DNA of 64,000 nt from an uncultured Isosphaeraceae bacterium (GTDB taxonomy: Bacteria > Planctomycetota > Phycisphaerae > Phycisphaerales > SM1A02): contig CAZFZT010000001.1 of NCBI GenBank assembly GCA_964523675.1, positions 4,450 to 68,449 of the forward strand. The letters run 5' to 3'. This document shows, piece by piece, positions 14,243-42,991 of this stretch (position 1 is its first letter; each line of letters opens with the position of its first letter). The notes below the pieces were generated by a model. The model was given only the letters and a program-made list of their open reading frames with translations, did no database searches and had not been told where the DNA came from. The position numbers and the translations under genes are program-made.

Positions 14243-16802
14243 GCCCTGGCGGACCGCGCTCATTGTTGGGGCCGTGGCGATCGCGGGATCGCTGGCCGTG
14301 GCTGTTTCGTGCGCGATCAGTTCCGTGCAGGGATCGATGGAACTGGCGCTTGAGCGCATTCTCGGCAAGGCGGATGCCCGCATCATTCACCCAGGTCTCG
14401 GCCGCTTCGATGATGAGATACTCGAACAAGTGCGCAGCTGGCCGGAGGTCGAACATGCCAGCGGTCGTGTCGTGGCCACGCTGACATTCGTGCACAGCGA
14501 CCGCCGGGTTGACGAGAAAACAGGGCGGGTGCTGCGTGCTTCGCCCAGCGCGATCGGAATCGACTTTGTCGAGGATGCGCGGTTTCTTGAGCTCGACCTG
14601 ATCGCCGGTCACATGCCCGCACATGATAATGAGATTCTGCTCGACAGCATCACAACTGAGGAGTTGAAAGCGTCCGTCGGCGATGAGCTTCGCCTCGATC
14701 ACTTTGGAGCGCCGATCCATTTCACTGTCGCAGGTGTCTTTGAACGGCAGCGCCTGCTCGGCGCGGTGCAAAGACCCCAGGTGCGCCTTGATCGCCGGAC
14801 GCTCGAACGCGCGGTCGGCGGCATTCGCGGCGAACTCTCCAGCATCATGATCCTGACGCGCTCGGGCGTCGATGTTCAGCAGTTCTGTGAAGCACGTGGG
14901 GCGGAGCTGCCTGAAGCAATCAACCTGGAGCCGGCCGAGCGCGTGCGTTCCGGCTTTGATCGACGCATCGCAGCAAGCCGCATTGCAGTGGTCATCACGT
15001 CGATCCTTACGTTCATGAGCGCCTCGTTCATCATCGTGACCGCGCTGACGACGTCAGTGACGGAGCGGCAGCGTGAGATGGCGGTGATTCGCAGCATCGG
15101 CGCGAGCCGCAGACAGATTTTCCTCTCGCAGATTTCTGTCGGGGTGATTCTGGGGCTGATTGGCGCAGCGATCGCGATACCGATGGGGATTGGCCTTGCG
15201 GCTGTGCTCATTTCGTGGTTCAGCGAGGAGTTGCCGGCAGGTCTTGCCATCAGCAGAAGCGGCATCGTGCTGGCGGTCGGCGGCTCGATTGCAGCCGGTC
15301 TTGTTGGCGCGTTGTATCCAGCGTACATTGCCAGCCGGGTTACTCCAATGCAGGCGATGGCATGGCGGGCGCGGCCGCCACGCGTCATTGGCATAGTCGC
15401 ATGTACGTTCTTGGGGTTTGTTTTTATTGCTGCGCAATTGGCGCTGCTTTCGCCGCGCCTGCCCGGAGGTGTGGATGGGCAGTTCTATCGCTATGTCTAT
15501 GTCGGTCTGCCCGGCGTTCACATCGGATACTTCGTTCTGGCGGTGCCGGTGGTCATCCTGTTGTCGCTCGTGATCGCGCCGCTGATCTCGCGTTTGCTGC
15601 GCCTTCCGAAGGGTGTTCTGGCACAATCAATCCTGGCAACGCCTTATCGCCATGGCTTCACGGCCGGGGCATTGATGGTGGGAGTGTCAATTCTCGTCTC
15701 AACATGGGGCGGTATGGCGTCTTTGATGAATGATTGGGTCTCCACGATCCGTTTTCCTGACGGTTTCGCTTATCACCCGACCGGCCTCTCACCGCGCCAG
15801 CAGCGGACGATTCAGCGGATGGAGTTTGTCGAGGACGCGTGTCCGATTGGAATGTTGCAGTTGCGAGTCGCGGGGCAGCAGGTATTCGGGTTGCAGGGAC
15901 TTTCGCCAGCGTTCGTGATGGGGGCCGGCGCGGACCCAAAGCGTTTCCTTGATATGAACGCTGTCAAGTGGGTGCAGGGCACGCGCGAGGAAGCAGTGCC
16001 GCGACTGATGGACGGCGATGCGATTCTTGTGTCGGAGCGGTTTCTCGTCGCGCGGAATCTGGGCATTGGCGACCGGCTCACGCTTGCTTCAGGCCGAACG
16101 GAGAAGTCGTTTGAGATTGTCGGGGTCGTGAGTGTTCCGGGATTGGAGATTGCGATTCAATCATTTGGCGTGCGCAGCGCATATATGGAGTTGGCCATTA
16201 GCATGGTGCTCATGAGTGATCGAGCGCTTGCGGAGCATTTTCAACATCGAGATGCGCACGTGATGCAGGTCAATCTGGATGACAGTGTGAGTGATGAAGA
16301 AGTCGAGGCCGCCATTGCACGAGCTGCGCCTGGGGTGCGATTTCGCAGTGGGCGATGGATCTTGGACAAGATTTACGAGTTCCTCGGCACACTCTTAGCG
16401 ATCCAGACCGTCATCGCCTTTTCCGCTTTGTTCCTCGCGTGCATCGGAGCGGGGAATGTGATTGTGGCGAACATTCATGCGCGGCGGTATGAGTATGGTG
16501 TCCTTCGCGCGACAGGAGCGCATCGCGGCGTGCTACTGCGGCTGATCATGGCTGAAGCAGGCGTCCTTGCAATAGCCGGCGCGGTGGTGGGGACTGTGCT
16601 CGGCCTGCACCTGACGTGGGTGGGGACTGTTTTTTATCGTGAGCTGGCGGGCATCGAACTGCGCACCACATTTGCGACCTTGCCGGTCGCAATTGGGTGG
16701 GGCGTGCTGGTGCTCATGACGATTGCCGCGGCCGCCCCCGCTGCGATTTCATTGATGCGTCAGCAGCCGGCTGCGCTGCTTTCCACGGGACGAAACGGGT
16801 AG
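14187..16802 (+). CDS. ABC transporter permease with two FtsX-type domains (YbbP/MacB-like)
   Basis: Two 4-TM FtsX modules separated by periplasmic domains. The start is uncertain: TTG 14187, TTG 14211 or the ORF-track 14112. It overlaps the end of the ATPase gene. Confidence 0.8.
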   Translation: MTGTLLASLAIARNNLSGRPWRTALIVGAVAIAGSLAVAVSCAISSVQGSMELALERILGKADARIIHPGLGRFDDEILEQVRSWPEVEHASGRVVATLTFVHSDRRVDEKTGRVLRASPSAIGIDFVEDARFLELDLIAGHMPAHDNEILLDSITTEELKASVGDELRLDHFGAPIHFTVAGVFERQRLLGAVQRPQVRLDRRTLERAVGGIRGELSSIMILTRSGVDVQQFCEARGAELPEAINLEPAERVRSGFDRRIAASRIAVVITSILTFMSASFIIVTALTTSVTERQREMAVIRSIGASRRQIFLSQISVGVILGLIGAAIAIPMGIGLAAVLISWFSEELPAGLAISRSGIVLAVGGSIAAGLVGALYPAYIASRVTPMQAMAWRARPPRVIGIVACTFLGFVFIAAQLALLSPRLPGGVDGQFYRYVYVGLPGVHIGYFVLAVPVVILLSLVIAPLISRLLRLPKGVLAQSILATPYRHGFTAGALMVGVSILVSTWGGMASLMNDWVSTIRFPDGFAYHPTGLSPRQQRTIQRMEFVEDACPIGMLQLRVAGQQVFGLQGLSPAFVMGAGADPKRFLDMNAVKWVQGTREEAVPRLMDGDAILVSERFLVARNLGIGDRLTLASGRTEKSFEIVGVVSVPGLEIAIQSFGVRSAYMELAISMVLMSDRALAEHFQHRDAHVMQVNLDDSVSDEEVEAAIARAAPGVRFRSGRWILDKIYEFLGTLLAIQTVIAFSALFLACIGAGNVIVANIHARRYEYGVLRATGAHRGVLLRLIMAEAGVLAIAGAVVGTVLGLHLTWVGTVFYRELAGIELRTTFATLPVAIGWGVLVLMTIAAAAPAAISLMRQQPAALLSTGRNG

Positions 16803-32000: not shown

Positions 32001-33005
32001 ATGTCCTACACCATCGACCTGCACGATGTAAAGAAGACCTACCGCGGCAAGGTGCATGCGCTGCGCGGCATCCAGATGCAGGTGCATCCCGGTGAGGTCT
32101 TCGGCCTGCTTGGCCCCAACGGCGCGGGCAAATCCACGCTGGTCAAGATCATGATGACCGTCGTCCGGCCGACGCACGTCACCGGCACCATGCTCGGCCA
32201 GCGCATCGGCCACAAACCAACCCTCGCGAGAGTTGGCTATTTGCCGGAACACCACCGCATGCCGCGTTATCTGACCGGTCGGCAGGTGATCGATTTCTAC
32301 GGCTGGCTGGCGAAGGTCGATCGCACCACGCGCAGGAAGCGCGCGGACGAACTGCTCGCCACCGTCGGCATGACCGAATGGGCGGACAAGAAGATCAGTT
32401 CCTACTCGAAGGGCATGCTTCAGCGCATTGGTCTTGCGCAGGCGCTGGTGAATGATCCTGATCTGGTGGTGCTTGATGAGCCGACGGACGGCGTTGATCC
32501 GGTCGGACGGCGCGAGATTCGCGATGTGCTCGTGCAACTGCGCGAGCAGGGCAAGACGGTGTTCCTCAACAGCCATCTGCTGAGCGAACTGGAGATGGTC
32601 TGCGACCGCGTGGCGATTCTGGTGCAGGGGCAGGTGTCCAGCCAGGGCACGATTGAGGAGTTGACGGCTGAGAGCAGGCGATACGAGATTGAGGTGGAGG
32701 GCGACGTGCCCCGCGATGTGGTTGAGCGGTTTGAAGGCGCGCGGCTGGCGGAGAAGGTGAACGGCCGGAGCAAGTTGATCGTGAAGGGCGCGGAAGCGGA
32801 GCGCGTGCAGCCGATCCTGGATGCGCTGCGTCAGCGGAACATGGTGATTGTGTCGGTGAAGCCGATGCGCGAATCGCTGGAGGATCTGTTTATGCGGGCG
32901 GTGACTGATCCGGTGACGGGTAAGGCGCACAAGCCCGGCGCGAAGATTGATCGCAAGGACCAGCCGGCTGTGCCGCCCGTGCAGCGAACCGGAGGTGCTG
33001 CATGA
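32001..33005 (+). CDS. ABC transporter ATP-binding protein (ABC-2 type)
   Basis: Walker A GPNGAGKST, signature YSKGMLQRIGLAQAL, Walker B LVVLDEPTDGVD. Confidence 0.9.
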   Translation: MSYTIDLHDVKKTYRGKVHALRGIQMQVHPGEVFGLLGPNGAGKSTLVKIMMTVVRPTHVTGTMLGQRIGHKPTLARVGYLPEHHRMPRYLTGRQVIDFYGWLAKVDRTTRRKRADELLATVGMTEWADKKISSYSKGMLQRIGLAQALVNDPDLVVLDEPTDGVDPVGRREIRDVLVQLREQGKTVFLNSHLLSELEMVCDRVAILVQGQVSSQGTIEELTAESRRYEIEVEGDVPRDVVERFEGARLAEKVNGRSKLIVKGAEAERVQPILDALRQRNMVIVSVKPMRESLEDLFMRAVTDPVTGKAHKPGAKIDRKDQPAVPPVQRTGGAA

Positions 33006-34204: not shown

Positions 34205-37200
34205 CTACTGCCTGCCGCGCCCTTGGGTGATGTTGATCGTATCGCGGCGCATGTTCCACACGGCGCGTTGGGCGTGCATTGGGAAGGCCGAACCGGCGGT
34301 GCGGATCGTAATATCGCGATCCGCTGCGGCCACGAGTTGCGCGACGCCGCCGCCGACGTTGTAATCGAACTCGCCGCAGTTGATCGTGCGATGATCGGTG
34401 ACAATCTCGACGGTTCCCGCTGCCCGCACACGTTCGAGTTCCGCAGAGCCGCCGAAGTCAAGATCGCCCCGCCGCGCTTCTTCACTGCCGCGCACGGCCG
34501 TGGCGGCAAGTTCATCGCACATCACTGTCGAAATCTGCTCGTCAAGGTCGCGATGTCGAAGTCGCACATTGCGCGTGGCGATCAAGTCGAAGATGTTGTC
34601 AAGACGTCGTTTGAGTTCGAGTTTTCCGTCCCACGTGAGCATGGTCGAGCCCTTCGCGCCGAATGGCGCGGGGTCATCGCCTGCGCGCACCGGCGCGACA
34701 TCATGGATGAGCAGGTGGCCGTCACCGACAACAAGCGCTTCACCGGTCAGCGCGTGGTACTCCACATGATGGCCTGCCACGTAGAAAATGCGCGGCTCCG
34801 CATCGGCGTCGCGCGCTTCGATACTGTCCCATGATTGCGACTCAATCTTCGCATCCTGCCGCGCAACGAGCATCGCCAACTGCCGCTGCCTGCCACCCAC
34901 GATCGGCTGAGCATCACCCAACAACCGCACGTGCTCCTTGCGGCCCTCTGATTCTTCGTCTTTCCTTCGCTCCTCCGCCCCTTCGCCCCTTCGCCCCTCT
35001 CCTATCACAAACGCAAACTCCAACGTCAGCGCATCACCGGTCATCGTATTGTGTTCAGTTGGAGAAGGGTCGGACATGACCGACACATCGCCGCGAAGAT
35101 CGATCGATCCTGCGCCGTCATTGGCTTGATTGTGAAAGAGCATCTCGCGCAGCCAGCGGGCGCGGACTTCCATCGGGTTCTTCTCATCATCGATCGCCGG
35201 GCGCTCAACGCGTGATGGCCGCTCATCAGGATTGACCTCGCGCTGTGGCATGATCTGATTCTGAAATAGCCGGAACTGGCCGGCTCCGGGCACACTCGCC
35301 ACACCCTTCCTGCGATCGAGCGTGATGCGACGGGCTTGATCGATGATCATGCGATCGCTCACGACCGCGACGCTGCCGATGTCGGGCGAAGTGAGTTCGA
35401 TGGTTTCACTGACACCGTTACCTGAGAGGCGGTCTGCGAAAACGCGCGTGCCGTCCGCAAGGATGACCTGCACATTTCGCTCGGCGATGAAGTCTTCGAC
35501 ATCCGCGCCCCGGCCGCGCAGAAGCCCGCCCATCCCTTCATCCTCTGCTTCTGCGTCATCCAGCGCGGCCGTCGATTCACGGAAACTCACGCGCAGGGCG
35601 TCGGCCCAAATCGTCTGCTCCTCATCGAAAGCCAGCACGTCGCCTGTGGCGACGAGCATTTTCGGAATGGTCTTTCCCGCTGTTGTCTGTTGAAGATTCA
35701 ATTGCAAATCGGCGCATCGAATGGCGGAGCGTTCGAGCATTCCGGTGACGTTGACATCGCCGGTGGCGTGGACCGATTCAATGGCATCAGACCCACCCTG
35801 TTCTGCGAAGGCGACAGCCATCTGATCAGCGGTCATATTGAATTCGGGGCTGGTGATGTTGACCGCGCCTTTGAAATGTGCATTTGAAATGCGGTCGCCT
35901 TCATCGTCGAATTGCAGATCAACGCCTCCCTCCCAGGTGATGTGCAGTTCAGGTTCCTCTCGCGGCTCTGGCGGCGCCTCACGACGTGCAACGCGCTGAG
36001 GCAGCGGATCGTCAGCAGCACACGCCAACGCAAACCACTCCTGATCAGCACGATCGCGGCGACTCATCCAACCATCGCCGTCGAATCCACCTTCTGCGTC
36101 CAGCTGCGCGAGATAGAAGCGCTCGCCGCCTGCTTCCATTTCAGGCGTGTTCACGCGCAGCGGATGGCCGGGCGAACCAACGAGTTCGATCACTCCGCGA
36201 TCGGTTTGGTAGACGAGCGTTCTGCCGAGCGCCTGTGATTGCTTGCCGAAATCACACAATTGAACCGGCCGGCCAGTGAGTTCCAATCGGGCGTCTTCCG
36301 CTCGAGCCAGAGCGCGGGAAGAATCACGCAGCGGCTGGATCGTGAGCGGGCCGCCTGCGCGGACGAGCGTGATGTTTTCACCGAGGAGCGACTCGATGCC
36401 GCCGGCACGCGGTTGAGTCACTGGGGAGAGTGAGCCGAGCGTCATCGCCGTGAGGGCTGCGCGAAGGTTGAATGATCGTCTGGCGGCGGGGCTGGGGGCG
36501 GCCGATGAGTGCGCGAGCGCAGAGGTGATTGACGGGGGCAGGAACGCAAGCGGGGAATCAAGCGATTCGGATTTTGAGGTAAAGATCAGTTCGAGGCGGT
36601 CACCAGATGCGGTGCGGCGGGCGGCACGCGTGCCTTCATCGATCCGAACGTTGTCCTGTAACGTCAAGAGGTAGAAGCGCGAATCGGCAGCGTCAGCGCT
36701 GTGAGAGCCCCCTGAAGACGGCTCGGAACGCGACGCAGCCAGCGAAGCTGTGCGCGAATAAAACCCTTGTGCCGAACGTGCTGAAGAGTACGACCGGGTC
36801 GATCGCTCTCGATCTTCACGTACGAAGCGGATGTACTCGACCTTGGCGAGGGTAATGCGAACTTCATCGTGTTGATCGTCGATCAGAATACTCAGCCGAT
36901 CACCGGGCATGGTGAAATTGGGCCCTTCGATGAGGACGCCGCCGCCTGCGCTAATCTCGCCGAGGAAGTTCTCGAATGACGCCTCGGCTGTATGCATGGT
37001 CATTGCCGGTTCATCGTGTTCCGGGTCGATGGGCTGACCGGGTTCATAGTCAAAGACCCTGACCACGACGTTTCCGGTTACGGTCCCTTGCTCGACAGCC
37101 CGCTGCGGGGCGTACGTGAAGGCGGTATCTCCGGCGATGGAAATGATGCGATCGTCGGAGAAGATTTCCATGCGCGGCTGAGTCATCTCCAGCCATCCAG

Positions 37201-37570
37201 GCCCCATGCCGTCCGGCGCTGGATCAAGTGCCTCGCAGCGGTATCGCTGTGCCGGTGTGCCATCGCTGTTGTGCGTTTGGATCCAGCCACGCTGAGCGCG
37301 AAGCGGCTGCATTCGGTCACCGGCTTGAGCGAGGTCAGCGTCGGTCAACGGGCTGGGCGGCGCGATGAGCTCGATGATCTGCTCATCAGTGAGGTGCTTG
37401 CTGCCGCGCGGCTCCTGATCGATATTCAATATGACAATGAGCAGCAGCGCTGCGACGATGCCGCCGCAAGTGAGAATCAGAAGTGGCTTGCTCGGGCCAG
37501 TGCGAACGGGGGGAGGTGCGCCGTCGTCGAGAAGCTGTCTACGCGGTGTGTCCATGTCGATTCTCACCAA
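34205..37570 (-). CDS. Giant (1121 aa) membrane-anchored protein built of repeated OstA/LptA-LptC-like beta-jellyroll modules
   Basis: Single N-terminal TM (PLLILTCGGIVAALLLIVILNI). There are at least 8 recurrences of the LptA/LptC-type pattern (e.g. ISIAGDTAFTY...GTVTGNVVV, VHATGDVNVTG, AERNVQVILADGTRVFADRL, LRGDVSVMS...MTGDALTLEF, VRAAGTVEIVTDHRTINCGEFDY). It sits directly downstream of kdsC, as lptC-lptA do in E. coli. Confidence 0.6.
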   Translation of the reverse strand: MVRIDMDTPRRQLLDDGAPPPVRTGPSKPLLILTCGGIVAALLLIVILNIDQEPRGSKHLTDEQIIELIAPPSPLTDADLAQAGDRMQPLRAQRGWIQTHNSDGTPAQRYRCEALDPAPDGMGPGWLEMTQPRMEIFSDDRIISIAGDTAFTYAPQRAVEQGTVTGNVVVRVFDYEPGQPIDPEHDEPAMTMHTAEASFENFLGEISAGGGVLIEGPNFTMPGDRLSILIDDQHDEVRITLAKVEYIRFVREDRERSTRSYSSARSAQGFYSRTASLAASRSEPSSGGSHSADAADSRFYLLTLQDNVRIDEGTRAARRTASGDRLELIFTSKSESLDSPLAFLPPSITSALAHSSAAPSPAARRSFNLRAALTAMTLGSLSPVTQPRAGGIESLLGENITLVRAGGPLTIQPLRDSSRALARAEDARLELTGRPVQLCDFGKQSQALGRTLVYQTDRGVIELVGSPGHPLRVNTPEMEAGGERFYLAQLDAEGGFDGDGWMSRRDRADQEWFALACAADDPLPQRVARREAPPEPREEPELHITWEGGVDLQFDDEGDRISNAHFKGAVNITSPEFNMTADQMAVAFAEQGGSDAIESVHATGDVNVTGMLERSAIRCADLQLNLQQTTAGKTIPKMLVATGDVLAFDEEQTIWADALRVSFRESTAALDDAEAEDEGMGGLLRGRGADVEDFIAERNVQVILADGTRVFADRLSGNGVSETIELTSPDIGSVAVVSDRMIIDQARRITLDRRKGVASVPGAGQFRLFQNQIMPQREVNPDERPSRVERPAIDDEKNPMEVRARWLREMLFHNQANDGAGSIDLRGDVSVMSDPSPTEHNTMTGDALTLEFAFVIGEGRRGEGAEERRKDEESEGRKEHVRLLGDAQPIVGGRQRQLAMLVARQDAKIESQSWDSIEARDADAEPRIFYVAGHHVEYHALTGEALVVGDGHLLIHDVAPVRAGDDPAPFGAKGSTMLTWDGKLELKRRLDNIFDLIATRNVRLRHRDLDEQISTVMCDELAATAVRGSEEARRGDLDFGGSAELERVRAAGTVEIVTDHRTINCGEFDYNVGGGVAQLVAAADRDITIRTAGSAFPMHAQRAVWNMRRDTINITQGRGRQ
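34953..35000. repeat. Octamer tandem array inside the giant Lpt-like CDS
   Basis: ...CGCTCCTC CGCCCCTT CGCCCCTT CGCCCCTC on the plus strand, which reads GAGGGGCG AAGGGGCG AAGGGGCG on the coding strand. It encodes the low-complexity GEGRRGEGAEERRKDEESEGRKE. Confidence 0.7.
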
Positions 37571-37674
37571 GAGCGGGTTTCAGAACTGAGGCCGCGAAGT
37601 GTGACTTTTGATACACGCATTGATGGTCACCTCGGTCGGTTCCTTGCTGTGCGCATTCGCGCTCATCAGCAGTG

Positions 37675-38190
37675 TCACTCCTCAAAGAGCGAGATGGCCT
37701 CGTTCCACTGATCGCGGGCGTCGAGCAGGTGTTCGATCGCTTCCCTGACTGCGCCGTGGCCGCCGGTTTTTTTGGTGGTAAAGGCGGCGACCGCTTTGAC
37801 TTCGGGGACGGCGTCGGCGACGGCCATAGGATAGCCGCAACGGTTGAGAAGCGGCAGGTCGGGCAGGTCATCGCCCAGCATCGCCGCCTCCGAGGCGTGC
37901 AGACCCAGCCGCTCGAGCAGATCAAGAAAGCACTTGCCTTTTTCCTTGACGCCCTGGAAGACGTAGGGCACAGCGAGTTCATCAGCGCGGTGCCGCAGGG
38001 CGAGGCCGGACCGGCCGGTGATGATGGCGACGTCGTACCCGAGCCGAAGCCAGACGCGGATGCCGGTGCCATCGCGCACGTGAAATCGCTTGGTCTCAAC
38101 GCCCTGATCGTTGATGTTGATCGAACCATCAGTCAGAACGCCGTCAGCGTCAAGACAAAGCAGTTTCACATTGGCGGCGGCTTCGATCAT
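37675..38190 (-). CDS. kdsC: 3-deoxy-D-manno-octulosonate 8-phosphate phosphatase
   Basis: HAD motifs LLCLDADGVLTDG, VRDG.GI, ITGR, GDDLPDLP. Length is typical of KdsC. Confidence 0.9.
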   Translation of the reverse strand: MIEAAANVKLLCLDADGVLTDGSININDQGVETKRFHVRDGTGIRVWLRLGYDVAIITGRSGLALRHRADELAVPYVFQGVKEKGKCFLDLLERLGLHASEAAMLGDDLPDLPLLNRCGYPMAVADAVPEVKAVAAFTTKKTGGHGAVREAIEHLLDARDQWNEAISLFEE

Positions 38191-38195
38191 CGGGA

Positions 38196-38341
38196 GGAGC
38201 TAGGAGCTAGGGATTCGAGATGAGGCGTTCAGGATATACACTATCCGGAACACATCGAGAGCAAGAAGGCGAGCAGCCGTCTCTCTCGGCGACCTAACTT
38301 AACTCCTAACTCCTAACTCCTGGCTCCTAACGCCTAACTCC
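38196..38341. repeat. Heptamer arrays forming imperfect inverted arms
   Basis: Left arm GGAGCTA GGAGCTA GGGATTC GAGATGA GGCGTTC (38196-38230). Right arm CCTAACT TAACTCC TAACTCC TAACTCC TGGCTCC TAACGCC TAACTCC (38293-38341). Read on opposite strands, both are GGAG[C/T]TA arrays. Confidence 0.8.
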
Positions 38342-40455: not shown

Positions 40456-40562
40456 GACAGATGATATGGTGAGACGATGAGGCGGTGGCTGGTCTCGATC
40501 AACATCAATGCGGTTCATGTGCCACAGCATCACGTCCGTCGCATCACACTTATCATTCAGCC

Positions 40563-41633
40563 GTGTCCGCACCCTCCGAACATTTCCTGCCGCGCCTCAT
40601 GGCGGGGATGCCGCGCGCTGCGACGACGTGGTTGTGCCGATGCTTCAATGAGCATCCGGATACTGCGTCGTTTGGTGAGACGTTGTATTGGGGTCGTGGA
40701 TACGTGGAGCCGCGCGGCGAAGGCGGCCGGTACACACCCGAGCAGGTCGACGCGGTGTTGGCCCGCCTCAAGGGCGGCGAGTGCATTACATCGGTCATAG
40801 GGGCACGTGCCGGTTCGCTTCGCAACATCACGCGCGACACTTTGCCGGGGGTTCTCGATCGCATGCGTGAGGAACTGCCAGAGCGGCCGACGGCGGGTGA
40901 GTTGTTCGTCGGCGTGTGTCGAGCGATCGGCCGCGCGGAAGGCAAATCGATCGTGGTCGAGAAGACGCCGCACCACATCAACTGGCTCGATCGCATCATG
41001 CAGCAGATGCCGGGCGTCAAGATCGTTGTGCTGCTGCGCGAGCCGTACTCGTTCATGCTTTCATACAAACATCAGGGCGACCGCAAGCGTGAGCACGTTC
41101 GCCGGCACTTTGCGCTGCGGTATCACCCGCTGGCCTGCGCTCTTGTTTGGCGGGCTTGCATGAAGGCGGCGGAGGCGGCGGAGGCCCGTTATCCCGCGCA
41201 GTTTCTGGTCGTGCAGAATGACGACATCCGTAAGAATCCGGGGTCGGTGCTCGATCGTGTGCAGGAGTTCTATGACTTGCCGACGCATGTACCGGGATGT
41301 CAGATTGCAGAGAAGGTCAAGCCGGAGAACACGAGCTTTCCATCGCAGGAAGGACACGACGCAGCCCGGCCGGAGTTGTGCGCTGAGGATGTCTTTTGGA
41401 TGAACCTGATCGGCGGGCGCACGATGGCGCGGTCCGGTTACATCAAGCGAAGCGTTCCGCGTGAACCGATACGGATCGCATGGTCAATCGCTCGACTGCC
41501 CGTGTGGGCTATTCGGAACTTCTTCAGTCTGCGGCGGCGCGTCGGCGGATCGATCGTCGCCTACCTCTGGCGATGGGTGGCGACGCCTCGCAGGGGTGTG
41601 CCGGTTCATGAAGAAGCGAACGCTCAAGGTTGA
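40563..41633 (+). CDS. Sulfotransferase family protein
   Basis: 5'-PSB-like loop MAGMPRAATTWL and 3'-PB-like region VVLLREPYSFMLSYKH. Probable GTG start at 40563 (ORF opens at 40485). Confidence 0.7.
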   Translation: MSAPSEHFLPRLMAGMPRAATTWLCRCFNEHPDTASFGETLYWGRGYVEPRGEGGRYTPEQVDAVLARLKGGECITSVIGARAGSLRNITRDTLPGVLDRMREELPERPTAGELFVGVCRAIGRAEGKSIVVEKTPHHINWLDRIMQQMPGVKIVVLLREPYSFMLSYKHQGDRKREHVRRHFALRYHPLACALVWRACMKAAEAAEARYPAQFLVVQNDDIRKNPGSVLDRVQEFYDLPTHVPGCQIAEKVKPENTSFPSQEGHDAARPELCAEDVFWMNLIGGRTMARSGYIKRSVPREPIRIAWSIARLPVWAIRNFFSLRRRVGGSIVAYLWRWVATPRRGVPVHEEANAQG

Positions 41634-42991
41634 ATGATTTGCCGGTGATGATGACGCACGACGCACGAAACAGTTCAATCGATCGGTCGAGCATGGCTCT
41701 ACCATGGTTTGCACTTGCGATGCTGATAGTCATCGTTGCGGGGCTTGCGCTGCGCTACGGCACGAACATTCTCGATTACCCCGATGTGCGCGATGAACTG
41801 CTGATGAAGCGGCCGATCGACGGCATCGTCCAGAGTGGCTGGAATGTTGACACAGCGATCAACTACCAGGAAGTCAAGGGGCCGGCGTTCTTCTGGCCTT
41901 ACGCGGCCGGGGCACAGATGATCGGTAATGAGATGAATGATCTGCGGCTCATCTCGATGTTGTTTTTCATCGGCGGCGCGATTCCGCTGCTGCTTATTGC
42001 GATGCGGTGCGGCGCGCGGAGTTGGATGCTGGCGTTGATCGCACTGCTCTATGTGCTTCTGCCATACAACGCGTGGGTCGCGCAGATGCTGATGAGCGAA
42101 CCGTCGTTCAATTTTTTCGGCCTGTGGATGATGTGGGCGTTCGTATGGGGACTTACGAGCGAGTCGGTCGTGGTCCGCCGATGCGCGCTGGCGCTCTTTA
42201 CGCTACTGCTTTCAACTCTGCTGCATCATCGCCCGCAGGGGATAGCGCTGGCTGGAGCGGCTGCACTCGTTGCCTTTGAGCGCGACGGGCTGCGCTCCTG
42301 GCCGTGGATTGCGGCTTGCATGATTGCGGGGCTGAGCCGTCTGCCGCTCTGGCTTCATTGGGGTGGCTTGGTGACGAGCGATTATCAGGGGCTCTTTGCC
42401 TTCGGTTTTCGACTCGATCCCATGACGTATCTGCTCGCCGCGGCGCTGCCGTTTACGGCGGCGTTCCTTTGGCCGGTGTTCAGCGAGCTGCGATATCGCA
42501 GCTGGAGGTGGTGGATGATCGGAGGGGGAGTCGCAGGGACGCTCTTTGGCTTCCTTTTCCCTCCCGACCTCTTTGCACGAGTTGAGTATCAACTTCTCAG
42601 CATGGAAGCAGCGGCAACACAGCCCATCTACATGGGCGTGATCGCGACAGGTGTCAAGTTGATGTTGCCCGGCGGCAAGGTGCAGCTTTTGATCATTGCC
42701 GCTCTAACAGGAACGGGCGTTATGTCGCTCATCGCCATGCTGGCGGTGACGTGGTCGCGCAGTGCGCTGCTAGGCGAGGGGGCGGTGTGCCGGCTGGGTT
42801 TCTGGATGCTGGCTGCGGGTTTGCCGCTTTACACCATCACGGCCGGTCCGGTTTATGACCGTTACCTCGCGGTGTGGGTCGTGCTGCTTCCGATCATCTG
42901 GGCGCGGACGCTGCCGCGCGGCGCGGTTCTGGCGCAACTTGCACTGATGAGCGCCATGTTCGTCTACTTTGTGTTCGAGAACCTGATGTAA
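41630..42991 (+). CDS. Polytopic membrane protein, GT-C (ArnT/PMT-like) glycosyltransferase fold suspected
   Basis: At least 10 hydrophobic helices. The first periplasmic loop carries acidic residues (DYPDVRDELL). 4-nt ATGA overlap with the sulfotransferase gene. Confidence 0.5.
   Translation: MNDLPVMMTHDARNSSIDRSSMALPWFALAMLIVIVAGLALRYGTNILDYPDVRDELLMKRPIDGIVQSGWNVDTAINYQEVKGPAFFWPYAAGAQMIGNEMNDLRLISMLFFIGGAIPLLLIAMRCGARSWMLALIALLYVLLPYNAWVAQMLMSEPSFNFFGLWMMWAFVWGLTSESVVVRRCALALFTLLLSTLLHHRPQGIALAGAAALVAFERDGLRSWPWIAACMIAGLSRLPLWLHWGGLVTSDYQGLFAFGFRLDPMTYLLAAALPFTAAFLWPVFSELRYRSWRWWMIGGGVAGTLFGFLFPPDLFARVEYQLLSMEAAATQPIYMGVIATGVKLMLPGGKVQLLIIAALTGTGVMSLIAMLAVTWSRSALLGEGAVCRLGFWMLAAGLPLYTITAGPVYDRYLAVWVVLLPIIWARTLPRGAVLAQLALMSAMFVYFVFENLM

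Follow-up and report, generated by a model that had tools for sequence, protein, structure and literature searches.

The closest described system is the Lpt machinery of E. coli, in which a bitopic LptC of 191 aa and a periplasmic LptA of 185 aa are encoded in the locus kdsD-kdsC-lptC-lptA-lptB (PDB 3MY2/4B54, 2R19/2R1A and 6MIT), the LptA-type units associating head-to-tail. An engineered E. coli LptC-LptA fusion bound LptB2FG in a stable complex and supported, in vitro, a transfer of LPS to LptD that depended on ATP, and a covalent design can therefore work (PMC12065857). In nature, parts of an Lpt bridge are covalently fused in the 'putative ABC permease' G4FGC1 of Thermotoga maritima, a single chain that combines domains resembling LptF/G, LptA and LptD (Sexton et al. 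2023, PMC10160955). Within the Planctomycetota, proteins of the type LptC-(OstA)n carry one PF06835 domain followed by four PF03968 domains (L036, 869 aa) or three (L038, 657 aa). An anchor in the inner membrane and, after it, a long one-chain conduit of repeated modules are the design principle also of the periplasm-spanning lipid conduits TamB and YhdP, which are AsmA-like, and of the seven-MCE-domain LetB (PMC10345924; bioRxiv 10.1101/2021.09.30.462657).

In the window (the whole stretch of 64,000 nucleotides of DNA analysed, from a bacterium of the Phycisphaerales, Planctomycetota), kdsC is followed by a single long reading frame, whose product, here called the bridge protein, is considered likely to be the only LptC/LptA homologue of the organism: a bitopic inner-membrane protein with a continuous series of Lpt-type beta-jellyrolls, one LptC-like and about four LptA-like. 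As in E. coli, the gene follows kdsC, an N-terminal transmembrane (TM) anchor precedes an LptC-like jellyroll, the downstream modules are predicted to have the LptA fold (Foldseek probability 1.00, TM 0.67-0.78), and lptB, lptF/G and lptD are present. In contrast to E. coli, one polypeptide of ~1,120 aa is found instead of two proteins of ~190 aa, its LptA-type units are covalently joined, long disordered inserts occur inside and between modules, and lptB is unlinked. The units lie in one anchored chain, and not in the soluble, secreted, self-associating protein of ~160-185 aa that is typical of LptA. Whereas the engineered fusion was made in the laboratory and includes one LptA, the bridge protein is natural, conserved and contains about five units. 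In G4FGC1 a permease, LptA and a barrel are fused in an organism without LPS, while here LptF/G and LptD are separate and only LptC and LptA-type units are joined. The Planctomycetota LptC-(OstA)n proteins share with the bridge protein the architecture, the position after kdsD-kdsC (L069, L070 and L074) and profile homology, but they are strong in Pfam (E=1e-36 and 1e-17), whereas the Phycisphaerales family has diverged and has one unit above the cut-off. No paper describing such a one-piece LptC-LptA bridge was found in a literature search.

The kdsC gene (37675-38190, minus strand) encodes a Kdo-8-phosphate phosphatase of 171 aa, which scored 153 bits with TIGR01670 against a cut-off of 107 and was matched by E. 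coli KdsC at 1e-35. The bridge gene, on the same strand, was listed from a TTG at 37570 to a stop codon at 34205-34207 (34205-37570, 1121 aa). For all 13 homologues the alignment begins at the Met at residue 6, the identical database protein has 1116 aa, and a GGTGAG is situated 7 nt 5' of the ATG at 37555. Because these three observations agree, the ATG at 37555 is preferred over the TTG and is probably the true start of a 1116-aa protein. The spacer between the two genes (37556-37674, minus strand) would then be 119 nt long, compared to 104 nt with the TTG. The expectation of kdsC followed 104 nt later by one 1121-aa frame thus held for both genes and their coordinates, but probably not for the start and the values derived from it. 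Neither a sigma-70-like promoter nor a terminator was found in the spacer, which fits co-transcription, and the two genes may form one transcription unit. The bridge gene is single-copy in the genome. The window contains no lptC, lptA or lptB, as had been noted, and no lptB lies adjacent to the bridge gene. The ABC ATPase at 32001-33005 is part of an ABC-2/DrrA-type exporter, which lies on the strand opposite to the bridge gene.

The domains of the bridge protein, all encoded on the minus strand, could be delimited as follows, with residues numbered from the TTG. An N-terminal tail (residues 1-27; 37490-37570) shows the motif RRxLLDDxPPPVRxGP, conserved in the homologue alignment, and is predicted to be cytoplasmic, the N-in orientation being assigned because positive charges precede the TM helix. 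The anchor itself is a single helix at residues 28-50 (37421-37489), where Kyte-Doolittle hydropathy peaks at 3.03 (residues 30-48) and AlphaFold2 (AF2) places a helix at 28-48, so that the expected single N-terminal TM helix is present. The topology is that of a bitopic LptC, one N-terminal TM helix being followed by an all-beta module, the LptC-like module 1 (residues 95-335; 36566-37288), which was recognised by TIGR04409, the unit profile, AF2 and Foldseek. Residues 254-292 (36695-36811) interrupt this module as a disordered insert. It is followed by a disordered, poorly conserved linker (residues 337-389; 36404-36562; pLDDT <50, variable alignment columns). The LptA/OstA-like modules 2 and 2b (residues 396-702; 35465-36385) are based on the unit profile, PF03968 and the unit HMM, the LptA-like module 3 (residues 709-912; 34835-35446) on the unit profile, hhalign and AF2, and the LptA-like module 4 (residues 929-1062; 34385-34786) on the unit profile and the C-terminal AF2 model. 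The chain ends with a partial module and conserved strands (residues 1062-1121; 34208-34387), to which the unit profile gave a partial match of 32%. Within module 3, a loop at residues 858-893 has pLDDT <50 and is missing or different in homologues. Tandem Repeats Finder detected an octamer array, CCTTCGCC x4.4, at 34964-34998 (no strand assigned), which translates in frame into a charged low-complexity stretch of this loop.

Similarity of the bridge protein to curated Lpt models is weak. PF03968 (LptD_N/OstA) reached 21.7 bits (22.5 as a fragment) against a cut-off of 20.4, over residues 562-607 in modules 2/2b (35750-35887), and this match spans only model positions 13-58, or ~45 residues. 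The TIGR04409 LptC model matched residues 128-234 with 20 bits (E=3.8e-4), below its cut-off of 38, and TIGR03002 (LptA) gave 15.6 bits, below 71.7. The LptC family PF06835 was not matched in the bridge protein or genome-wide; in relatives of the same order it gave sub-threshold matches of 17-18.5 bits at the place equivalent to module 1. Pfam searches with fragments of the protein detected nothing outside residues 540-670, and a PDB sequence search with the protein gave no match.

When a profile of canonical Lpt units was compared with the bridge-protein family profile by hhalign, residues 446-621 (98%, E=1.8e-13), 709-912 (97%, E=1.7e-11) and 929-1062 (95%, E=1.8e-8) were matched, together with weaker matches at 125-240 (70%), 562-702 (62%) and 301-331 (45%) in addition to the C-terminal partial one. 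When other planctomycete proteins were used to build a unit HMM, the bridge frame ranked first of 25,063 ORFs in the genome (E=6e-19), with a 35-bit domain in modules 2/2b, while the next ORFs were marginal or non-significant (E=0.027 and above). Residues 441-585 align to 704-844 with an hhalign probability of 88%; on this alignment module 3 duplicates module 2 within the chain, and the repetition within the protein is real at the sequence level. The motif on which the original prediction was based, A(D/G)x9G.V.GNV.V recurring at least 8 times, could not be confirmed, with no literal matches and five relaxed ones. Five relaxed matches compare with 1.3 +/- 1.1 in shuffled sequences (n=500), three of which reach five, and the motif core G[DNE]V.[VIL] occurs three times against 0.19 expected.

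The full-length AF2 model is all-beta, with pLDDT 72 and a pTM of only 0.55, and the C-terminal 436 residues modelled alone reached pLDDT 82 and pTM 0.76; the input alignments were shallow, with 13 and 11 rows. The placement of the modules relative to one another in the full-length model, and with it a straight continuous groove, is tentative. Module 1 contains 15 strands at pLDDT ~75-90, and module 3 has pLDDT 85-92 outside its disordered loop. Foldseek searches of the PDB with the full model returned LptD, LptC (4b54/3my2, TM 0.65-0.68, with 4b54 at 0.67-0.68), LptA (2r1a, TM 0.70) and LptH (4uu4), all with probability 1.00, and the C-terminal model matched LptA 2r1a (TM 0.78) and LptC (TM 0.71), also with probability 1.00. 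An Lpt-type beta-jellyroll is thus predicted along the entire periplasmic part, in agreement with the expected fold. The count is about five LptA-equivalents, set in eight beta blocks split by disordered loops, rather than eight modules or more.

A lone TM helix with ~1000 residues of uninterrupted beta structure behind it is also the architecture of AsmA/TamB/YhdP-type phospholipid bridges, and the likeness to Lpt could in that case come only from the shared groove-forming beta structure. No TamB (PF04357) match was found anywhere in the genome, therefore the TamB role looks unfilled, and an RBG-type LPD-3 complex appeared as a weak Foldseek match (probability 0.21). Nevertheless, this explanation seems most improbable. 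At probability 1.00 Foldseek matched Lpt proteins only, neither model had a TamB, YhdP or AsmA chain among its top 50, and the Pfam/NCBIfam matches are only to LptD_N, LptC and LptA, with no AsmA/TamB family in Pfam at E<=10. The profile homology reaches proteins with significant LptC and LptD_N domains, and the synteny is with Kdo genes. The AsmA-like proteins and LetB belong to other fold families, and neither Pfam nor Foldseek places the bridge protein in them. LetB forms a hexameric tunnel instead of a groove.

The remaining parts of an LPS pathway were identified in the genome, as the Lpt reading would lead one to expect. They include, away from the bridge locus, lptB (314 bits against a cut-off of 240), lptF/G on contig C89 and lptD adjoining lpxB, and in addition the lipid A/Kdo genes lpxA/C/D/B/K, kdsC and kdsD, and msbA-like genes. 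Profile searches of the genome, which is 94.6% complete, detected no other OstA-, LptA- or LptC-like ORF and hence no stand-alone lptA or lptC. The bridge protein would, according to sequence and model, replace separate LptC and LptA proteins. A bridge derived from Lpt could also carry a cargo other than LPS, e.g. lipoproteins or another glycolipid. Proposals of this kind exist for the Lpt homologues of Borrelia and for the Lpt-like fusion of Thermotoga. Lpt-like machines are known in organisms that lack LPS (bioRxiv 10.1101/2022.12.21.521298; PMC10160955), and the sequence of the bridge protein is very distant from canonical LptA/LptC. Against the gene set listed above, a phylum-wide tie of the bridge gene to kdsC/kdsD, and the lack of any other protein available as LptC/LptA for the LPS presumably made, a different cargo is regarded as unlikely.

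This tie was seen when the loci of related genomes were compared. In all 10 loci of the same family kdsC is directly upstream of the bridge homologue, and in the wider class and phylum this is so for 11 of 16 loci (13 of 16 with kdsC or kdsD), so that overall 23 of 26 related loci have kdsC or kdsD as the gene directly upstream. The class and phylum loci with upstream kdsC/kdsD include proteins having significant LptC and LptA domains. A single long bridge frame was detected in 25 of 25 genomes of the family, 7 of 7 relatives of the same order and 39 of the 61 class genomes searched. The family profile collected 1995 cluster representatives at E<=1e-3, and planctomycete proteins which Pfam reads as LptC plus three to four LptD_N domains (LptD_N E=1.7e-36, LptC E=1.6e-17) scored as high as 100.6 bits with the family HMM. 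In 32 of 38 genomes from across the Planctomycetota, the LptC domain belongs to a frame of 500 aa or longer. LptC-LptA fusions are therefore widespread in this phylum. The Phycisphaerales family members are labelled 'hypothetical protein' in databases. Taken with the profile, fold and genome results, this distribution supports the LPS-transport bridge that had been proposed.

An LPS function might be limited to module 1, acting as LptC, with the other ~700 residues serving as a spacer, a scaffold or for cell-wall or partner binding, and a very divergent free LptA having been missed. The Lpt signal is indeed uneven along the chain, long disordered loops break up the modules, and Pfam sensitivity is poor in this lineage, where even the LptD N-terminal domain reaches only 11 bits. 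This division of labour is nonetheless very improbable. The C-terminal 436 residues alone fit LptA better than any other fold, the three downstream regions match the unit profile at 95-98%, and the C-terminal strands are among the best-conserved parts of the protein. Moreover, no short LptA- or OstA-like frame was found in 41 genomes of the family, every PF03968 match (E<=0.1) being in a frame of 638-1370 aa.

For the bridge built from all modules, a mode of action can be proposed by analogy with the E. coli LptB2FGC-A-DE complex. The N-terminal helix would sit at the LptF/LptG interface, and module 1 would join the LptF periplasmic jellyroll edge-to-edge. Later modules would build the hydrophobic groove in cis, whereas E. 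coli uses free LptA molecules in trans. LptB2FG would extract LPS using ATP and push it along the groove to the outer membrane. The conserved C-terminal strands, in which W1105 is invariant in both homologue alignments and D1110 nearly invariant in one, may dock on the LptD periplasmic domain, as the candidate counterpart of the docking edge at the E. coli LptA C-terminus.

It is thus probable that one chain, fixed in length, forms the LPS bridge across the periplasm. With covalent links between the modules, the gene would determine both the stoichiometry and how long the bridge is. A heuristic count on the DSSP strings of the model gave ~41 beta rungs, which would correspond to ~20 nm, excluding LptF/G and LptD. 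The concatenated bridge may be linked to an enlarged periplasm. In longer relatives a clean duplication of ~245 residues was observed, indicating that bridge length is altered among relatives via duplication of whole units.

The kdsC gene (37675-38190, minus strand; 171 aa), scored at 153 bits by the KdsC model TIGR01670 against a cut-off of 107, is followed downstream on the same strand by a single ORF at 34205-37570, encoding 1121 aa when read from the TTG at 37570, from which residues are numbered here. The gene order and the single ORF of the original prediction were retained, but the gap of 104 nt given there is probably 119 nt. Translation probably begins with the ATG at 37555 (1116 aa), as judged from the alignment of all 13 homologues from this methionine, from an identical database protein of 1116 residues, and from a GGTGAG located 7 nt 5' of the codon. 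One strongly hydrophobic helix was found (residues 28-50), as expected from the single N-terminal transmembrane helix claimed earlier, and the positive charges on its N-terminal side indicate that most of the protein is located in the periplasm. The cytoplasmic tail ahead of the helix (37490-37570) carries a conserved motif, RRxLLDDxPPPVRxGP, shared by most members of the family. A tail of this kind is missing from E. coli LptC; here it could serve as a cytoplasmic contact to LptB or LptF/G. Two heptamer arrays, AGGAGCT x2.4 (38195-38211) and TAACTCC x6 (38300-38341), flank the junction of a DNA methyltransferase gene and kdsC, the latter array coding for the C-terminus of the methyltransferase. 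A scan for promoter and terminator patterns gave nothing informative.

Searches with curated models placed PF03968 (LptA/LptD N-terminal domain, LptD_N/OstA) just over its cut-off (21.7 versus 20.4 bits, residues 562-607) and the LptC model TIGR04409 under its own (20 bits, E=3.8e-4, residues 128-234), while the LptA model TIGR03002 gave 15.6 bits and PF06835 (LptC) did not match the protein. Pfam analysis of ten separate fragments returned a match in residues 540-670 only, and a profile search of PDB sequences yielded chance matches (E ~1). Comparison of the family alignment with LptC and LptA of E. coli, one sequence each, by hhalign was uninformative, with probabilities of only 0.3% and 2.7%, respectively.

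The homology proposed from pattern recognition could be traced via intermediates. A survey of the phylum with PF03968 and PF06835 revealed many Planctomycetota with several OstA matches in one long frame. Ten such proteins were retrieved and read with Pfam, among them an 869-aa protein with LptC and four LptD_N domains (LptD_N E=1.7e-36), a 657-aa protein with LptC (E=1.6e-17) and three LptD_N domains, and a 1059-aa protein with LptC and LptD_N. An HMM built from the Phycisphaerales homologues of the bridge protein scored up to 100.6 bits on the retrieved proteins, several of its regions matching their OstA units, which links the family to Lpt despite its weak scores with the curated models. 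Since querying with E. coli LptA retrieved only enterobacterial sequences more than 82% identical, too narrow a set for a broad profile, a unit HMM was made from the planctomycete OstA units together with E. coli LptA. Among all 25,063 ORFs of the genome this HMM ranked the bridge ORF first (E=6e-19), all further matches being marginal or not significant (E=0.027 and above). Profile-profile comparison of the unit and family profiles placed canonical units at residues 446-621 (hhalign 98%, E=1.8e-13), 709-912 (97%, E=1.7e-11), 929-1062 (95%, E=1.8e-8), 125-240 (70%, E=3.9e-5) and 562-702 (62%, E=7.6e-5), with partial units at 301-331 (45%, E=2.3e-4) and 1062-1118 (32%, E=5.0e-4).

The short motif by which the modules had been recognised, and which was said to recur at least eight times, did not hold: it has no literal occurrence, and a relaxed form occurs five times against 1.3 expected. 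The core G[DNE]V.[VIL] is present three times (0.19 expected), and a genuine internal repeat was detected between residues 441-585 and 704-844 (hhalign probability 88%). The poorly conserved, disordered loops of the protein look like tolerated inserts. The loop at residues 858-893 contains in frame an octamer array, CCTTCGCC x4.4 (34964-34998), which is translated into a charged Gly/Glu/Arg-rich stretch that the homologues do not have.

AlphaFold2 modelling of the full chain, from 13 alignment rows (mean pLDDT 72, pTM 0.55), predicted a single transmembrane helix and, after it, eight blocks comprising about 60 beta strands in total, with low-confidence loops between the blocks at residues 254-292, 337-389, 519-538, 670-686 and 858-893. 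In a Foldseek search of the PDB, LptD, LptC, LptA and LptH were retrieved with a probability of 1.00 or close to it, with TM scores of 0.65-0.68 (rmsd ~4 A) for LptC (4b54 and 3my2) and up to 0.70 for LptA (2r1a). Large competing matches to teneurin, Tc toxin shells and the T9SS translocon were of low probability (rmsd >30 A). The C-terminal part (residues 686-1121), modelled separately (pLDDT 82, pTM 0.76), matched LptA (TM 0.78), LptC (TM 0.71), LptH and the LptC chain of LptB2FGC at probabilities of 0.98-1.00, so that the Lpt fold is predicted to extend to the very end of the protein.

AsmA or TamB-type chains were absent from the results for this C-terminal model. A phospholipid bridge of this type, for which it may be said that nothing in the genome matches TamB (PF04357) at E<=0.01 although six of the control diderm genomes have a match, is contradicted by all homology and fold evidence and is considered highly improbable; a TamB homologue is either too divergent or absent here.

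For an estimate of length, rungs were counted from DSSP strings, a bent strand of at least 11 residues or two short strands being taken as one rung. The resulting ~41 rungs, at ~4.8 A per strand, would correspond in the model to a bridge of about 20 nm, or about five E. coli LptA equivalents of eight rungs each, and the ~808 structured periplasmic residues, divided by ~155 per LptA, also give ~5 equivalents. LptF/G and LptD would add further to this span. As a yardstick, in a published Borrelia model, LptC, LptA and the N-terminal part of LptD together measure ~18.5 nm, each 12-rung LptA contributing ~6 nm (bioRxiv 10.1101/2022.12.21.521298).

The assembly of the genome (3.47 Mb in 152 contigs, 94.6% complete) contains the bridge gene in a single copy and no other OstA- or LptC-like ORF, which extends to the whole genome the earlier remark that separate lptC and lptA genes are not visible in the window. 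The remaining components were located elsewhere: lptB on contig C98 (314 bits, cut-off 240) between small membrane proteins and pilT, two neighbouring lptF/G genes on C89, and, in the region C31:25595-30129, an lptD homologue directly after lpxB on the same strand. This LptD has ~500 residues ahead of the barrel, including a Pro-rich low-complexity stretch, compared with ~200 in E. coli, and its N-terminal jellyroll reached only 11 bits with PF03968. The bridge may thus be extended at its outer-membrane end too. A weak LptF/G match in the window itself (~15003-15176) belongs to an FtsX-type permease beside an ABC ATPase and was discarded. Incompleteness of the genome is an unlikely cause of the missing free LptA and LptC: across 41 same-family genomes, all PF03968 matches at E<=0.1 lie in frames of 638-1370 aa and none in short frames. 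The possibility that the protein is an LptC with a non-transport tail, a free LptA having gone undetected, is very unlikely in view of this family-wide absence of short OstA frames and of the LptA-like C-terminal model.

Genes for lpxA, lpxC, lpxD, lpxK, kdsD and msbA-like proteins are all present. At C93:9431-10999 both E. coli LpxC and FabZ match one frame of 523 codons, with lpxD upstream and lpxA downstream, and by sequence the two genes appear to be fused. A further lpxD homologue is found in the window at 1229-2410 (E. coli LpxD, E=2e-44), the copy on C93 being the second. Directly upstream of the bridge homologue, kdsC was found in 10 out of 10 same-family loci, and kdsC or kdsD in 13 of 16 further loci from the class and phylum, including those of proteins with significant LptC and LptA domains. 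The bridge loci mirror the E. coli order kdsD-kdsC-lptC-lptA, with the difference that lptB never comes next. Transport of a cargo other than LPS is unlikely, given this linkage to kdsC and the full set of lipid A and Kdo genes.

Taken as LptC and LptA of this organism in one chain, which is the probable identity of the protein, the bridge can be compared with the solved E. coli complexes. By this analogy, the anchor helix and the LptC-like module 1 (residues 95-335) would act as LptC at LptB2FG, modules 2-5 would stand in for the LptA oligomer in cis, and the conserved C-terminal strands, in which W1105 is invariant and D1110 nearly so, would dock on LptD, while ATP hydrolysis would drive LPS along the groove. 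The transport chemistry is presumably ordinary Lpt chemistry. Covalent linkage is compatible with function, as an LptC-LptA fusion made in the laboratory binds LptB2FG and sustains in vitro LPS transfer to LptD (PMC12065857). Besides this engineered construct, a precedent for covalent Lpt fusion is found in Thermotoga, with LptF/G, LptA and LptD in one chain (PMC10160955); literature searches gave no account of multi-module LptC-LptA chains occurring in nature. The role of the protein is probably like that of LptC plus LptA, yet it stays below the curated LptC models, reaches those for LptA only over the ~45-residue PF03968 match, and lies outside the definition of LptA as a 'small soluble protein', and is therefore placed as a variant of the Lpt bridge belonging to neither.

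The proposed survey of such fusions showed a wide distribution. A word-indexed search gave 12 homologues with 30-52% identity, the few named ones being 'hypothetical protein'; named relatives originate from MAGs labelled Phycisphaeraceae, Phycisphaerales or Phycisphaerae, and one from Isosphaeraceae. When 1.84 billion cluster representatives were searched with the profile, 1995 matched at E<=1e-3, 835 of them at E<=1e-30, most having 1000-1480 aa. Homologues were present in 25 of 25 same-family genomes by BLAST and, by profile, in 7 of 7 same-order relatives and 39 of the 61 class genomes searched, each time as one long frame. An LptC-domain match was obtained in 38 Planctomycetota genomes; the frame that contains it has at least 500 aa in 32 of these (at least 900 aa in 16) and less than 500 aa in six. 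A few Planctomycetota genomes carry short LptA-like frames of 190-231 aa, and both designs are therefore present in the phylum. Family members of 1271-1484 aa contain a clean tandem duplication adding ~245 residues, roughly one unit: their match to the family HMM falls into two domains, one ending at profile position 780-810 and the next beginning again at ~540. The number of modules therefore changes by whole units.

Planctomycetota are known for an unusual, enlarged periplasm, and even in E. coli the number of LptA per bridge and the matching of bridge length to periplasm width are still disputed. It is tentatively proposed, with slightly more doubt than belief, that a single covalent chain, with no free LptA, makes up the entire LPS bridge across the periplasm from LptB2FG to LptD in Phycisphaerae and probably in the majority of Planctomycetota, the protein acting as, or reporting on, a molecular ruler for the distance between inner and outer membrane. 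If so, length would be gene-encoded, with ~5 LptA equivalents here and one extra ~245-residue unit in the relatives of 1271-1484 aa, and a natural system of fixed stoichiometry would be available to settle the number of jellyrolls required in an Lpt bridge. With an anchor and ~4 LptA-type units in one natural chain, both unit number and length would be fixed by the gene, and relatives differing by one cleanly duplicated unit provide a ready-made series of lengths, against which envelope spacing measured by cryo-tomography can be set. The assignment also fills an annotation gap, as these proteins carry the label 'hypothetical'; in surveys of LptA and LptC based on standard models, Phycisphaerae would be recorded as devoid of both, which bears on arguments about outer-membrane evolution.

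Two other loci were recorded. The window contains, at 40485-42991, a gene for a sulfotransferase (PF13469) that overlaps the beginning of another, which encodes a 453-aa polytopic membrane protein without Pfam match; the two could be a pair for envelope glycan or lipid modification. At C36:14733-21026, outside the window, two adjoining proteins of ~1,035 and 1,062 aa have near-identical Gly/Asn-rich repeats of ~190 aa and a common C-terminus with two dockerin-like segments; their matches to the unit HMM (E=0.027 and 4.5) were attributed to chance, and the proteins look like secreted repeat proteins.
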